Shown here: positions 2,441 to 60,620 of the stretch, in pieces | How the letters are laid out: each line of letters opens with the position of its first letter | Numbering within the stretch: the first letter of the stretch is position 1 | From: a virus | Length of the DNA stretch: 64,000 nucleotides | Virus record (IMG/VR): IMGVR_UViG_3300036859_000726 | Span: 3,239-67,238 of that record | Reading direction: 5' to 3' (one strand) | Position numbers and translations under genes: made by a program | The notes under the pieces: generated by a model | Databases searched by the model: none | What the model was told of the DNA's origin: nothing | The model's input: only the letters and a program-made list of their open reading frames with translations

Positions 2441-2454
2441 CCCTCGAAAAGCGC

Positions 2455-2484
2455 CATACGTATGCGCTCCGGGCGGGCGATACT
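2455..2484 (+). promoter_or_regulatory. Possible promoter (CATACG-N18-GATACT)
   Basis: Intergenic; same CATACG element as at 6964. Confidence 0.3.
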
Positions 2485-2505
2485 AGCTGCAGGTAACGGG
2501 AGACC

Positions 2506-2970
2506 TTGATGCCAAAAGCAAAACTACCACCAGACGCATCGTTCCACGCCTTTCAAGAATTCGACATCAAGAGGCTAGAGCAGGCAGAAACCAACGATTG
2601 TGCAGTGCGCGCAGTCTCTGCGGCGACCAAGATCCCTTATGAAGAAGTGCTGCTATGCTTCAAGCTATGCGGCAGGCGCTCTCGAAAGAGCACGCAGACC
2701 AACATAACGTGGGCTGTCCTTCAGCAATTCGGCTACAGCTACACGGCTGTATGCCTATCTGACTTCAACCCTCCGTCGAGGGCTGCTCGCGGCAAGCACG
2801 GCATAACAAGCCACCACCCTGATCGCTTCCCGCATATGTGGAAGGGCAAGGGCACATTCCTGTGCTTCAGCCAGGGGCACGTCTGGGCAGTTGTTGACGG
2901 CACCGTCATTGACTGGAGCCGCGGCAAGTCTCTGCGCGTCAGACACATCGCGAGGATCGAGAAGCTATGA
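2506..2970 (+). CDS. Phage protein with possible papain-like Cys/His dyad
   Basis: NDCAVRAVSAAT ... GHVWAVVDGTVIDW. Confidence 0.6.
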   Translation: MMPKAKLPPDASFHAFQEFDIKRLEQAETNDCAVRAVSAATKIPYEEVLLCFKLCGRRSRKSTQTNITWAVLQQFGYSYTAVCLSDFNPPSRAARGKHGITSHHPDRFPHMWKGKGTFLCFSQGHVWAVVDGTVIDWSRGKSLRVRHIARIEKL

Positions 2971-3164
2971 AAGAACACGATCGCGTTCGCATCAAGTCTG
3001 GCCGCCTCAAGGGTTGCAAGGGCGACATCCTCGAGATCGTTGCAGATGAAGACATGGAGGCATATCGCGTTGCGCTCGTTGAAGTCACGCCTGAAGCCCA
3101 CACCCGCGGATATCGCGTTGAGGACAGCGTCGACATGGATCGTCATGAACTGGAGCCAACGTGA
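2967..3164 (+). CDS. KOW-motif small protein
   Basis: DRVRIKSGRLKGCKGDILEI. Confidence 0.55.
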   Translation: MKEHDRVRIKSGRLKGCKGDILEIVADEDMEAYRVALVEVTPEAHTRGYRVEDSVDMDRHELEPT

Positions 3165-4237
3165 ACATCTTCAAGAAGGTGTATGAACTCCCGCTGGGTC
3201 GCCAGTATGTTCGACATTGGGGCATGACAGAGGCGATTCGAGAGATCCTTCAGAATGCCCTCGACAGTGAGTCACCCTTCGAATACGAGCTGACAGATGA
3301 TACCCTCAAAGTGCACAGCAAGTACACTACGCTCACGCCAGCAACGCTTCTGCTGGGTCAGACTACCAAAGCCGAAGCCACCGACAAGATCGGGTCATTT
3401 GGCGAGGGATACAAGATTGCACTACTGGTGCTCGCGCGATCTGAGTACAACGTTCGCGTCCTGAACGGCGACCGCATATGGACTCCCACATTCAAGATGA
3501 GCAGGCAGTTCGAAGCGGAAGTGCTCGTCATTGAGGACACATCATGCCCGGAGCTGCCCAACGAGGGGCTCACCTTCGAAGTTCGAGGATTGAGTCCAGG
3601 TGATGTCGCGTCGATCCGCGAGAGCTGTTTGCAGATGCAGTCACATGTCGGCGAGTGCATGAAGACTCAGTATGGGCGCATTCTCCGAGAGCGTCCAGGG
3701 AAGCTCTATGTTGGCGGCCTGTATGTCTGCGACACAGAGCTCCAGTTCGGCTACGACATCTTGCCGCAATACTTGAAGCTCGAGCGCGATCGCCAGACGG
3801 TCAGCAACTGGGACCTCCAGGACCGCACCAAGGAGATGTGGTTCGACACAGAGCGATATGAAGAAATCGCTCAGCTCCTAGCCGACAAGTGCAAGGACCT
3901 TGACTATGCGGAGTATGGCGCACCTGACATGGTCAAGGAAGCCTGCTACAGACACTTCAAGGAGAAGCACCCTGGCGCTGTGGTAGCCAGAGATCAGGAC
4001 GAGCTCGAGAAGTTCGTCAAGCAGGGCATGGAGCGCGTCGTCGTTGTCGGCGGCGCATATGGGTCTGCAGTCAGAGGCTCAGGATCATACAACTCAACTC
4101 ACGTTCCGCGGCGCATACAAACGCCGCGTGAAGTCCTGGAGCTGTGGTACGAGGCGAATAAGAAGAGCATGCTTCGCCCAGCAAAGGACAGCTTCCAACA
4201 CTTGCTTGAGAAGGCAGACAAATGGAAAGAAAGATGA
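3161..4237 (+). CDS. GHKL (HATPase) family ATPase, RIIA-N-like
   Basis: EAIREILQNALD (N box) and IGSFGEGYKIALL (G box). Confidence 0.8.
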   Translation: MNIFKKVYELPLGRQYVRHWGMTEAIREILQNALDSESPFEYELTDDTLKVHSKYTTLTPATLLLGQTTKAEATDKIGSFGEGYKIALLVLARSEYNVRVLNGDRIWTPTFKMSRQFEAEVLVIEDTSCPELPNEGLTFEVRGLSPGDVASIRESCLQMQSHVGECMKTQYGRILRERPGKLYVGGLYVCDTELQFGYDILPQYLKLERDRQTVSNWDLQDRTKEMWFDTERYEEIAQLLADKCKDLDYAEYGAPDMVKEACYRHFKEKHPGAVVARDQDELEKFVKQGMERVVVVGGAYGSAVRGSGSYNSTHVPRRIQTPREVLELWYEANKKSMLRPAKDSFQHLLEKADKWKER

Positions 4238-4494: not shown

Positions 4495-4829
4495 TGAGAA
4501 AGAAGCAAGACATCGTCATTCGAGCTAATGACTTCTCTCGACTCGAGCCTGTAGTCACGAATCAAAGAACCGGGGCAGCAAGGTGGCTACATCGCTGCGA
4601 CGCCATTCGCGACATTGACTACAACAATGACTGCATTGAGGGTGCAAAGTCTCTGGAGTATTTCAGATGTCACCTACGAGCGAAGTTCAAGGTTGGTGCA
4701 TACAAGCTGTGCGTGCGACACGCGGCGATCCTGGCTCTCGACAAGATGCTGGGTGAGAAACCTGAAATGACCTTCTGGCCGGATGGAGGCACGAAGGAAG
4801 CTCTGCAGAACAGATTGAGGAGAAGATGA
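4494..4829 (+). CDS. Hypothetical protein
   Basis: TAATG-coupled ORF. Confidence 0.55.
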   Translation: MRKKQDIVIRANDFSRLEPVVTNQRTGAARWLHRCDAIRDIDYNNDCIEGAKSLEYFRCHLRAKFKVGAYKLCVRHAAILALDKMLGEKPEMTFWPDGGTKEALQNRLRRR

Positions 4830-5008
4830 TGTTCAAGTTCATAGCCAAATTGTTCGCACCCAAGGCTCCTCGTGAGCTCATCTTCGTTTCATATTCGAAG
4901 GCCAACGACATGCTCCTCAAGAAAGAGGGGTGGCGCCTTGCTCCAGAAGAGGACAAGAATCGTGTGCCTGGTATGGTGTGGCTTGAAAGACCAGGCAAGA
5001 AAGACTAG
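4826..5008 (+). CDS. Hypothetical protein
   Basis: Coupled ORF with SD gagga. Confidence 0.5.
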   Translation: MMFKFIAKLFAPKAPRELIFVSYSKANDMLLKKEGWRLAPEEDKNRVPGMVWLERPGKKD

Positions 5009-6416: not shown

Positions 6417-6853
6417 AAGCTCTACTCGCCTCTCTTGCTCTGCTTGCGTTTGCAGCCTCGGCAGCGGAATACGTGCCGATCGGCGCATATGGCGATCCGC
6501 TCGCGCCGGGCACTGGACTCACAGTGGACAACACAGGAAAGACCACGCTACTGTGCGGCTTCATCATGGTAGGCATGTCTGGGGTGTACAGCTTCGATGC
6601 TACGCCATCAGCAAAGGTATGGATTGACAGGGAGCTTGTCGTCCATTACGTCGAGATCACTAAGGGTCAGCACTCCATCATAGTGGAGATCCCGAAGACC
6701 AAGAAGGCGCTGACTCTCCAATGGCAAGTGCCTGCTTTGGTTACAGAGAATGTGCCGACAAAGTATCTGTATCCAAAGATGTCGTCGAATCTGCCTGGTT
6801 GTCAAAAGCCGGAAGTGCAGCCCGCGGCGCCCGTACTACGCGCCCCGCTATAG
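6413..6853 (+). CDS. Secreted hypothetical protein
   Basis: Sec signal MKALLASLALLAFAASA; ATGA-coupled to the upstream gene. Confidence 0.7.
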   Translation: MKALLASLALLAFAASAAEYVPIGAYGDPLAPGTGLTVDNTGKTTLLCGFIMVGMSGVYSFDATPSAKVWIDRELVVHYVEITKGQHSIIVEIPKTKKALTLQWQVPALVTENVPTKYLYPKMSSNLPGCQKPEVQPAAPVLRAPL

Positions 6854-6992: not shown

Positions 6993-7524
6993 AAAGCTAC
7001 GCAGTAAGGCGTGCAGGGAGTTGGAAGTGGCGAAGTCTGAACAGGCCGATCCTATTTGCAAGCTGGTTAATGCCTTACGGCAAACTTTCAAATACGAAGG
7101 TGGAGTCATCTTCAGACCTTTATTTGACGGCAGAATTCAAGTGCTGCCGTCTTTTCACATCACGCTATTCCCTGTGATGGAAGCTGAGAATGAGTTGATG
7201 AGTACCGGGTCTGCGCCTTTGGACCCAAAATGATCGATACTGCCCGGAATAAGTTGCTCAGGCATAACCATCGAGTTGGCCTCACAGTTACAGGGACGGT
7301 ATGCAGAGTGGCCCGCGCACAACCAGACTCGGTACTCATCTACTTATGAACTACAAATGTGTTCGCAGGAATTGCTTCATTCGCGTCGAGACAGAAGGCG
7401 ATGCATGCTTCAGATGCAAAGAAGTGCAATCTCGAAGGCTGAATGAGCAAATGAGGATTGAGAAGGCACTTGGCAGAACGCTGCGAGAAGTTTCAGGATA
7501 TGGCCCTCCAACAGGAAGACTCAA

Positions 7525-7710
7525 GTGAGCTCCAAATTGTTCGCCATGAATGTATCCATCATCAAAAAGGATATCGGGCCTGCCACACTTAATTGTGAAG
7601 TCGCTGCTCCTGATATGCTAACAGCAATCAACTACACGCTTCAGAGGCTCGCGGAAGAAACCGCTGTTGCTCTGTACTTTCATAGCGTGATTGAGAAGGT
7701 GCCGAGTTGA
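7525..7710 (+). CDS. Hypothetical protein
   Basis: GTGA-coupled ORF ending just before the tRNA-like element. Confidence 0.4.
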   Translation: MSSKLFAMNVSIIKKDIGPATLNCEVAAPDMLTAINYTLQRLAEETAVALYFHSVIEKVPS

Positions 7711-7715
7711 TTTAT

Positions 7716-7910
7716 TGCGGAATAGCTCAGGGGTCAACTGCAGGCGCATCGACGGGTGCGCTGCTGCAGTGAGCGGGATCGAAAATCGTAGACCAGCTGG
7801 CGGGTGCATAGCCTGGGTGCAAACGCTTTGGACGAACCGAGAATCGTGAACGTGAGAGCGCCAGCCTGATAAGCTGGAGGTCGAGGGTTCGAGTCCTTCT
7901 TCCGCTACCA
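7716..7910 (+). tRNA. tRNA-Ile(GAT)-like RNA with a ~127-nt expanded D-loop
   Basis: Acceptor TGCGGAA(7716-22)/TTCCGCT(7900-06); U8A9; D-stem GCTC(7725-28)/GAGC(7856-59); anticodon arm CCAGC-CTGATAA-GCTGG; variable AGGTC; T arm GAGGG-TTCGAGT-CCTTC; A73 and encoded CCA. Confidence 0.8.
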
Positions 7911-7923
7911 TTGAGGAGTTGTC

Positions 7924-8577
7924 ATGTGGGTTGAGATTGTACCAAGACGAGCAGACTTCTGCGGAAGTCCACCTTGCCCCTATTGCTACAATTGGAAGGA
8001 TGGTCCAGACTCGCAGGTCGTGCCTGGCATGTACAAGTTCACTCTTGATATGCTCAACTCGTCGCCCGAGTCTCTGAAGAAGGGCCAGCTGAAGGAGCTT
8101 GAAGCGCTCGCCAAGAAGGTTCACGACGACAAGGTGGCAGCCAAGTCGGCGCCAAAGGTTGAGCCGCCAGAACTTGACGCAGTTGATATCGGCATGAGCC
8201 TGTCAACGCGCATAAACCGCATGCTAAGCCTGAATCGTCCAGTGAAGAAGGTTGAGCCTCGTTTGCCGACTGTGGATGAGGTGTTCGCAAGGCAGGCAGA
8301 GCGAGAGGAAAAGCTGCAGGCTGAATCAAAGGTCAAACAAGAGCGCATAGAAGCTGCTCGTGAGATCGCTCAGGTGCTCGCGCAGGTCAATCAGGAGAGC
8401 AAAGCAAGAGAAGGGCGCTATCTCCTTAACGATATCCCTCCTGATTTCGTGCGCTACTGCCAACGAGCCGGTATGGATGATCCAATAGAGATTGCGGAGC
8501 GCTGGCGCTACGAGAATGGACAGCGAGAAGCCTCTCGTTACATGGTTGGTTCCAGGGGTAAGGATCGATACTTCTAA
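7924..8577 (+). CDS. Hypothetical protein (N-terminal CxxC, coiled coil)
   Basis: 217-aa ORF with SD gaggag. Confidence 0.65.
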   Translation: MWVEIVPRRADFCGSPPCPYCYNWKDGPDSQVVPGMYKFTLDMLNSSPESLKKGQLKELEALAKKVHDDKVAAKSAPKVEPPELDAVDIGMSLSTRINRMLSLNRPVKKVEPRLPTVDEVFARQAEREEKLQAESKVKQERIEAAREIAQVLAQVNQESKAREGRYLLNDIPPDFVRYCQRAGMDDPIEIAERWRYENGQREASRYMVGSRGKDRYF

Positions 8578-59826: not shown

Positions 59827-60151
59827 CTTCCTTCTCCTTTGTTGCTTCTCGTAGCATGGCAGCGTAAACCATCAAGTCTTCTGCAGAGTCGACATGCCCT
59901 TCAACGATGTTTTGCGCATATCGCTTCATCTTGATAAGGCACATGACCATCAAATACAGATGCTGGGCAGCCTCTGGCGTTGTGATCTCCGGTATCTTGC
60001 CGCCGAACAGAGCGAGCAGAGCAGGACCTGTTGTCCGATAGGATGCGCCATATGCAGCATTCCTTTTGGAGAAAAGGCCTGCAGCCTCGTCCAGAAAGTC
60101 TGGAGCAGTGCGCTTCTTGATTAAGCTCGGGACATCATTTTCCGGTGGCAT
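59807..60151 (-). CDS. Nucleotide-modification-associated (Nmad1/DUF1599 or DUF6378-like) helical protein
   Basis: KRNAAYG...IKMKRY...DSAEDLMVYAAML; start MPPEND. Confidence 0.6.
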   Translation of the reverse strand: MPPENDVPSLIKKRTAPDFLDEAAGLFSKRNAAYGASYRTTGPALLALFGGKIPEITTPEAAQHLYLMVMCLIKMKRYAQNIVEGHVDSAEDLMVYAAMLREATKEKEDDGVRP

Positions 60152-60620
60152 GGTACAGGAACTCCTCGTCGTGGATTGCGCGATGGACGCCCGGAAGCCC
60201 GAGGTCGTTGTACATCTGAACGATTTCCCTTCTGTCGTCGTAGCAGGCATGCACATCCTCTGGATTGAACAGTCGTGTCAGAAGGTCGATCATCACAGCG
60301 CGCTTGAATTCTACAGCAGGCCGATAGTCGTTGAATGTTGGGCGCAAGTGCAAGAGATTCTCGCCGGGCTTTCTGCCATGCTTCATGAACCACTTCAGAC
60401 GAATTGCGCGATACTCGTCAGGCATGCCAGAGATGAAGTGGATCTGGAATGATCTCGGATATTGCATTTCCTTGATGAAGTCCGCCTTGTCCTGAATGCA
60501 GGCCTTGTGATACATGTGATACCTTGCCCAGCGAATCCCGCTCGGATGGTCCTGTATCAGATGAAGGCGATGATAGTCATCAGAGATGCAGTTGTCGATG
60601 TCGCAAATGATGAACTTCAT
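60135..60620 (-). CDS. HAD-superfamily phosphatase (PNKP phosphatase-like)
   Basis: ICDIDNCIS (DxD); YDDRREIVQMY. Confidence 0.8.
   Translation of the reverse strand: MKFIICDIDNCISDDYHRLHLIQDHPSGIRWARYHMYHKACIQDKADFIKEMQYPRSFQIHFISGMPDEYRAIRLKWFMKHGRKPGENLLHLRPTFNDYRPAVEFKRAVMIDLLTRLFNPEDVHACYDDRREIVQMYNDLGLPGVHRAIHDEEFLYHATGK

Follow-up and report, generated by a model that had tools for sequence, protein, structure and literature searches.

A phage tRNA-Ile(GAU) gene with a 119-nt insert in its D-loop and similarly interrupted genes in other phages

We found that positions 7716 to 7910 (+) of the window, by which we mean the whole 64,000-nt stretch of phage DNA analyzed, hold a real tRNA-Ile(GAU) frame that carries a long D-loop insert. 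The same architecture, with intact stems and unrelated inserts, was found in six further phage genes, which argues for retention of the insert. Since these analogues exist and no bacterial route for the removal of such an insert is known, the insert seems to be kept for some purpose, and the window gene is probably maintained and not debris. Our preferred reading, to which we assign a probability of roughly 40%, is that this is a live tRNA-Ile(GAU)-derived gene in which the D-loop insert is retained, the product being a non-decoding tRNA-like RNA.

The IMG/VR record behind the window is 67,549 bp long, of which the window covers 64 kb; it derives from a soil metagenome assembly, and CheckV rates it complete. 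Products of the phage include a DnaE-type polymerase, an SNF2 helicase, TerL, an SU10-type adaptor and a GH108 plus PG_binding_3 lysin, and the host, as judged from the bacterial DnaE and the lysin, is bacterial. The element fills a 213-bp gap between two (+) ORFs, an orphan of 61 aa at 7525-7710 and a 217-aa gene at 7924-8577. Its 5´ end lies 5 nt past the upstream stop codon and its 3´ end 13 nt from the downstream gene, which together with its GAGGAG ribosome-binding site (7913-7918) spans 7913-8577; this site begins 3 nt past the CCA. No promoter-like or terminator-like site was found flanking the element. A complete tRNA frame that exactly fills such a gap in a compact, complete genome favors retention of the insert. 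The position between same-strand genes with no flanking signals, the closeness of the ribosome-binding site and, in another phage fragment (L012), the location of the element within an uninterrupted 290-codon frame would also be consistent with an element that acts mainly in cis, in DNA or in the polycistronic mRNA, and not as a free RNA. It might then serve as processing punctuation between the upstream and downstream messages, with RNase P or RNase III sites, control the downstream gene or form an attachment site. We think this very improbable, given that a plain tRNA or hairpin suffices for punctuation, which leaves a conserved D-loop insert unexplained, that no integrase was listed by Pfam among the 81 ORFs scanned, a result on which the attachment site was rejected, and that in two proviruses (L051 and L074) the interrupted gene is the last of a tRNA operon, followed in L051 by a terminator.

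According to the original prediction, every element of a tRNA is intact, and each was located. In the 5´ exon (7716-7728), the acceptor strand TGCGGAA (7716-7722) pairs with TTCCGCT (7900-7906) at six of seven positions, T1/T72 (U1/U72) being mismatched, and is followed by T8 and A9 (7723-7724) and by the D-stem strand GCTC (7725-7728), which pairs fully (4/4) with GAGC (7856-7859). The 5´ part of the D-loop, AGGGGT (7729-7734), supplies A14 and G18 G19, and its 3´ end, GA, is continuous with the 3´ strand of the D-stem (7854-7859). The next segment (7860-7882) comprises G26, the anticodon arm CCAGC-CTGATAA-GCTGG (7861-7877, stem 5/5, GAU at 7868-7870) and the variable loop AGGTC (7878-7882), and the last (7883-7910) comprises the T-arm GAGGG-TTCGAGT-CCTTC (7883-7899), with a canonical TTCGAGT loop and a 5/5 stem that includes one G-U pair, then the acceptor 3´ strand, A73 and the encoded CCA (7907-7910). 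The D-loop extends from 7729 to 7855 and measures 127 nt, as claimed, compared to a canonical range of about 7-11 nt.

ARAGORN called no tRNA gene in the whole native window, and the Rfam tRNA model (RF00005) covered only the 3´ part (7849-7907; 31 bits versus a gathering threshold of 29), in line with the expectation that standard finders would miss the gene. The comparison of native and insert-deleted sequence that had been recommended gave a clear outcome: with the insert deleted at almost any pair of boundaries within 7729-7741 and 7843-7856, ARAGORN called tRNA-Ile(gat) from 7716. Deletion of 7735-7853 left a normal D-loop of 8 nt, again as anticipated. The textbook tRNA-Ile obtained by this deletion (8-nt D-loop, GG18/19, C56, A73 and CCA) speaks for another explanation, in which host enzymes remove the insert after transcription to give a working tRNA-Ile(GAU). 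Removal might involve a cut and religation, for example RNase cleavage plus RtcB, which would be a novel form of tRNA splicing in bacteria, or clipping without ligation, as by RNase III on rRNA, in which case the acceptor and D stems would hold the two pieces of the tRNA together. The AUC and AUU codons, with a combined frequency of 44 per 1000 in the phage, and the existence of real D-loop introns in archaea (PMC3241643, PMC3695527) are further points in favor of removal. We regard it as possible, if rather unlikely, for reasons that concern the machinery and the other genes of the class, given below. Of all class members, the window copy has the most canonical features (GG18/19, TTCGA with C56, CCA, an 8-nt D-loop after deletion); this counts against retention, and is what would be expected under excision restoring a standard tRNA, or after a recent insertion.

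The insert itself (7735-7853, 119 nt) lies between U20 and G20a/A21 and is single-copy in the phage; its boundary slides by 2 nt, as the 5´ exon and the insert each end in GT. The original prediction described it as folded, which was borne out beyond chance for the first hairpin and not for the small agcg, ccag and acga helices that follow. This first hairpin, H1 (7737-7770), has 14 bp, a 2-nt bulge and a GACG loop, and is strand-specific; folded as 7737-7771 it is far more stable than expected by chance (z = -3.56), with none of 200 shuffles equally stable. The small helices are contained in H2 (7773-7847), a long, irregular predicted hairpin with the apical loop AGCCUGG, which folds no better than shuffles (z = -0.69). 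For the whole insert, the (+) strand gave z = -2.28, with 2 of 200 shuffles as stable, and the (-) strand z = 0.03, the plus-strand signal being due to H1; the full 195-nt element gave z = -1.66. The insert folds by itself, and all four cloverleaf stems are still able to close. There is no second anticodon-type 7-nt loop in the insert, whose loops GACG/UCGACGG and AGCCUGG lack U33 or UAU. Removal could draw on H1, a stable 14-bp hairpin, as a plausible nuclease handle, and the failure of H2 to exceed chance, together with the U1/U72 mismatch, weighs against retention. We also noted a direct repeat in the insert, CGA(A/G)AATCGT (7780-7789 and 7838-7847, 9 of 10 positions identical, 58 nt apart), which is weak, with about 0.2 such repeats estimated by chance.

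Known kinds of intervening sequence did not account for the insert. A group I or group II intron was rejected given the length of 119 nt, the D-loop position and the lack of an Rfam ribozyme family, and the earlier judgment that the insert is too short for such introns holds; it is also unlike them, with no Rfam ribozyme or intron family detected. In a search down to E <= 10, non-tRNA Rfam families between 7600 and 8000 gave only three weak matches (E 0.9-5.4), all far below gathering scores, and the insert is on this basis no known ribozyme or intron. An archaeal bulge-helix-bulge (BHB) intron was rejected after a relaxed motif scan placed no BHB at 7729-7740 / 7843-7856. That bacteria lack BHB splicing had been pointed out from the outset, and the absence of the motif at the junctions and the nature of the phage as one of bacteria (DnaE, GH108 lysin) agree with this. 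An archaeal virus was likewise rejected given the bacterial DnaE, the GH108/PG_binding_3 lysin and the absence of PF01974. Domains of EndA (PF01974), RtcB and RNA ligases are absent from the phage, the sole ligase of which is DNA-ligase-like. We further rejected a mobile element, as the insert has neither terminal inverted repeats nor another copy in the phage, and a tRNA-shaped intron, as ARAGORN and Rfam detect no inner tRNA in the insert. That no known removal system fits, with Rfam, BHB and EndA/RtcB/RNA ligase all negative in the phage, supports retention; correspondingly, it is held against removal that neither a ribozyme nor a BHB motif was found, that no known intron family matches and that the phage has no endonuclease or ligase gene suited to the task. 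Elsewhere in the window, a small HAD protein (60135-60617, (-) strand) has a sub-threshold match (23 versus 27 bits) to PF25109, the phosphatase domain of polynucleotide kinase-phosphatase; a kinase or RNA ligase partner was not found in the phage.

We compared the locus with those of related phages. The 66-kb phage G001 is a true relative (portal 60%, TerL 70% and DnaE 66% identity), in which no tRNA match at all was detected and the homologue of gene 7924 directly adjoins the preceding ORF. No tRNA was found near the genes for two other homologues of the 217-aa protein, at L005 and L006. The absence of the tRNA from all three relatives indicates that, as far as these loci show, the interrupted gene is a lineage-specific acquisition. 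The 75-aa protein of the phage matched repeat proteins only, and relatives of the phrog_6077 protein were rejected as relatives of the locus because they are not syntenic. The exact insert junction had no match in IMG/VR, matches in INPHARED phages were limited to the 3´-half of the tRNA, and neither the IMG/VR search nor comparison with the insert of L012 detected a homologue of the insert. Among sequencing runs, matches came only from the probable source run, from soil, and from a wastewater run, and no RNA run was listed as containing the locus. The joined, insert-free form was not seen in contigs from sequencing runs, which are DNA-type assemblies and provide weak evidence against removal.

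The absence of the gene from the three relatives is a point against retention and would fit a recently disrupted tRNA, in which 119 bp of DNA landed in the D-loop and which is dead or dying, though not yet decayed. Also consistent with such a relic are the singleton status of the gene, the failure to find a homologue of the insert, the U/U mismatch at the top acceptor pair, the GT repeat at both junctions, which could be microhomology from illegitimate recombination, and the near-perfect tRNA features, which fit a recent event. Nevertheless, we consider a relic quite improbable: the element leaves only 5 nt and 13 nt to its neighbors in a compact and complete genome, the insert is neither a repeat nor a recognizable mobile element, and six other phages maintain the same architecture with compensatory changes.

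The closest counterpart emerged from a search with the exact 23-mer that covers the anticodon arm and variable loop of the window gene. This 23-mer had no match in one genome each of 185,579 species, the cellular genomes being searched solely for it in exact form, and none in IMG/VR once the records of the window's own genome were excluded, and had two among 241 million JGI contigs. One of these belongs to an ordinary tRNA-Ile (L013). The second comes from L012, part of an unrelated phage that has genes for a UvsX-like recombinase and SbcCD-like proteins and shows no protein similarity to the window; L012 carries a tRNA-Ile(GAU) with a D-loop of 98 nt, its insert placed after GGU20 as in the window. 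Compared to the window gene, the L012 gene has C3-G70 instead of G-C and A7-U66 instead of G-C in the acceptor stem, and A50-U64 instead of C-G and G51-U63 instead of U-A in the T stem, with pairing kept throughout. The original prediction had taken homologues with only the 3´ half, and no covariation to the 5´ strand, as the sign of a degenerate remnant; L012 has both halves, with compensatory acceptor changes. A rare 23-mer and an insertion site shared by two genes that differ by compensatory pairs in the acceptor and T stems argue for retention, and imply long survival of the interrupted state, in contrast to what a relic would predict. Removal of the L012 insert gives a perfect canonical D-loop, AGCAUGGUA, which would be in keeping with excision. 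The two inserts are 50.7% identical, which is the random level, and cannot be aligned; that presence and site are kept at random-level identity is how intron-like spacers behave, again as removal would have it. For retention the same comparison is unfavorable, as an insert only 50% identical to that of L012 and with no detectable homologue leaves conservation of the window insert itself unsupported.

The remaining members of the class came from a scan of IMG/VR with the pattern TAGCTCAG, gap, GAGC, N6, CTGATAA, N5, AGGTC. Because the pattern prescribes the D-stem, anticodon loop and variable loop, their presence carries no information on conservation, and as the scan was restricted to Ile(GAU) and to exact TAGCTCAG, it does not set the size or isotype range of the class. 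Gaps of 96-126 nt gave only tandem tRNA arrays, while gaps of 66-95 and 28-58 nt gave five interrupted genes (L051, L074, L061, L081 and L082), each with acceptor strands paired 7/7; ARAGORN, run over four of these five stretches, called no tRNA. Defined by complete stems, a D-loop of >50 nt and no tRNA within the insert, the class consists of the window gene, L012 and these five, the six besides the window gene having D-loops of 53-98 nt. In scripted pair counts, the acceptor, anticodon and T stems of all six analogues are intact, with many pair types per position. The inserts are unrelated across the class, except for the homologous pair of L051 and L074, and none has an Rfam family match. 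A motif-free structural scan of both strands of 839 kb of phage DNA recovered the window gene, the six analogues and tandem tRNA arrays only, whereas a block-shuffled control gave 0-1 hit. The carriers are diverse, among them two ~40-kb proviruses and phages of 42 kb, 155 kb and 545 kb; RtcB and RNA ligases were found in one of the five other carrier phages checked, the 545-kb phage. Precise deletion restores a canonical D-loop in L081 as well, AGUUGGUA, a further point for removal.

The pair formed by L051 and L074 permits a comparison of exons and insert. Their exons are 77-82% identical and their inserts 82%, compared to about 50% for the 300-nt flanks. Six stem pairs have changed between them, all six by compensatory substitution, and the helices internal to the insert covary. 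Together, the compensatory changes and an insert as conserved as the exons indicate that, as read from this alignment, the interrupted gene, insert included, is under purifying selection in the L051/L074 lineage. Such conservation and covariation support retention and go beyond the needs of a spacer, which counts against removal.

A second signal came from the T-loop. The C56-G19 pair builds the tRNA elbow, and C56 would be expected to be kept if the inserts were spliced out to yield standard decoders. However, C56 is kept in only two of the seven interrupted genes, in contrast to 42 of 45 ordinary phage tRNA-Ile(GAU) genes at the same loci (absent from 5/7 versus 3/45; Fisher p = 4e-4); position 56 is also where L051 and L074 differ, and some members of the class lack GG18/19. 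This loss suggests that the elbow is remodeled or unused, i.e., that the insert stays, the pattern expected where the standard elbow is no longer used, and it argues, for the five genes without C56, against excision that simply restores a standard decoding tRNA. For removal, it is a difficulty that excision gives the five members without C56, and those without GG18/19, no standard elbow. The window copy and L061 retain both GG18/19 and C56, and for the window gene excision or recency therefore still has a place among the explanations. That phage tRNA D-loop intervening sequences are removed by bacterial enzymes, either by splicing free of ribozyme and BHB or by clipping to a functional two-piece tRNA, is nonetheless unlikely in our estimate.

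Under the preferred reading, retention of the insert, a module of ~119 nt with two hairpins would sit between U20 and A21, in the variable pocket, which lies at the L-shaped fold's outer corner. The transcript would arise by read-through from the early operon, RNase P would cut at 7716, and the encoded CCA would form the 3´ end. Because the module would not be spliced out and would remain as an expansion protruding from the elbow, a tRNA-like RNA of about 195 nt would result, displaying an Ile-type anticodon loop, A73 and the acceptor stem, such that IleRS may bind or charge it, and with an elbow that would be too bulky for passage through the ribosome. Its role would thus lie outside decoding, for example as a decoy or sponge for host tRNA-recognizing factors such as defense nucleases, which is pure inference on our part, or alternatively as a stable tRNA-capped carrier of the hairpin module.

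To our knowledge, interrupted tRNA genes in bacteria and their viruses are limited to self-splicing group I/II introns in the anticodon loop, and D-loop interruption is textbook archaeal biology that depends on BHB and EndA. Group I introns occur in the anticodon loop of bacterial tRNA-Leu(UAA), tRNA-fMet, tRNA-Ile(CAU) and tRNA-Arg, and their ribozyme core, of at least about 200 nt, is detectable with Rfam. The window gene is like these in having an intervening sequence in a bacterial-type tRNA gene, but its insert is only 119 nt long, lies in the D-loop and belongs to no Rfam family. The intervening sequences of bacterial 23S and 16S rRNA are sporadic, sequence-variable hairpin inserts of ~100 nt that extend an existing helix and are excised by RNase III without religation, the RNA staying functional; we know of such RNase III-type sequences only in rRNA. 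The window gene resembles them in its hairpin insert of ~100 nt in a loop of a putatively stable RNA; its hairpins, by contrast, adjoin unpaired D-loop bases and extend no helix. Class II tRNAs and allo-tRNAs offer another parallel, as a tRNA body that tolerates and keeps an extra folded arm; their arms grow from the variable region, away from the ribosome, whereas that of the window gene grows from the D-loop at the elbow.

The archaeal cases, Aeropyrum pernix tRNA-Thr2 and Methanopyrus kandleri tRNA-Glu, are likewise otherwise complete tRNA genes interrupted by a structured D-loop insert, and end processing is possible there with the insert in place (PMC3241643, PMC3695527). Archaeal introns are bounded by a bulge-helix-bulge and cut by the EndA endonuclease (PMC3241643, PMC3695527), unlike the window insert, which lacks a BHB and belongs to a bacterial phage that encodes no EndA. 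The tRNAs of Lak megaphages carry "enigmatic" introns, predicted with eukaryote-mode tRNAscan and hence anticodon-loop introns, one of them tRNA-shaped in look (Devoto et al., 2019; PMC6784885). These resemble the window insert in being phage tRNA inserts that are no known ribozymes; the window insert differs in lying in the D-loop and in not being tRNA-shaped. A full-text literature search found no bacterial or phage D-loop interruption, only archaeal, BHB-dependent cases (PMC3241643, PMC3695527), and the phage tRNA introns in the literature searched were the anticodon-loop "enigmatic introns" only (PMC6784885).

Of the seven phage genes that depart from the anticodon-loop-only rule and still look selected, that of the window is the clearest. 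If bacteria process such precursors, by splicing or clipping, this would be a new tRNA maturation route, undescribed in bacteria, and would help to explain why tRNA finders under-count phage tRNAs. If the products are instead bulky tRNA look-alikes, they would have a job outside decoding, which bears on tRNA-targeting defense and phage counter-measures. The variable pocket of the D-loop can accommodate inserts of roughly 40 to 120 nt, a property of use in RNA engineering.

Several further observations were made at these loci. Positions 7112-7297 of the window are identical to a 187-nt contig in a wastewater "RNA-Seq" run from which the rest of the 3-kb region searched is absent, which suggests that the phage, or that piece of it, is also present in wastewater at low depth. 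In L012, the 290-codon frame (2453-3325), reported by gene callers as a single orphan protein without a homologue, overlaps the recombinase stop codon and spans the whole interrupted element without a stop; such a frame may be coincidental, with an estimated chance probability of a few per cent, or may indicate that a message contains the element. Eight bases upstream of its interrupted gene, L074 has an 89-nt tRNA-Ile(UAU) (6562-6650, (-) strand) with a long variable arm and the loop CAGAUUA, a gene that the sister provirus L051 lacks. The 155-kb phage L061, which has 26 tRNAs, also has a full-length but sub-threshold Rfam tmRNA match (4523-4958, (-) strand; E = 1.9e-11, 37 bits versus a gathering score of 47). 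A tRNA-Ile(GAU) in L023 (1276-1460) is normal up to the variable loop and then runs into unrelated sequence at the T-arm (AGGTC GTTTATTCTAACC...), which could be an insert in the T-arm. In an identical arrangement in the viral contigs L016 (7254-7445) and L018 (3889-4080), a tRNA called "tRNA-Stop" (tta) by ARAGORN precedes an incomplete second copy of a tRNA 5´ half, after which comes a tRNA-Ile(GAU). Finally, L031, L035, L039 and L047 have a conserved tRNA 5´ fragment ~110 nt upstream of an intact tRNA-Ile(GAU), extending from the acceptor to the start of the anticodon loop (CTCATAA or CTTCTAC) and continuing into AT-rich sequence.
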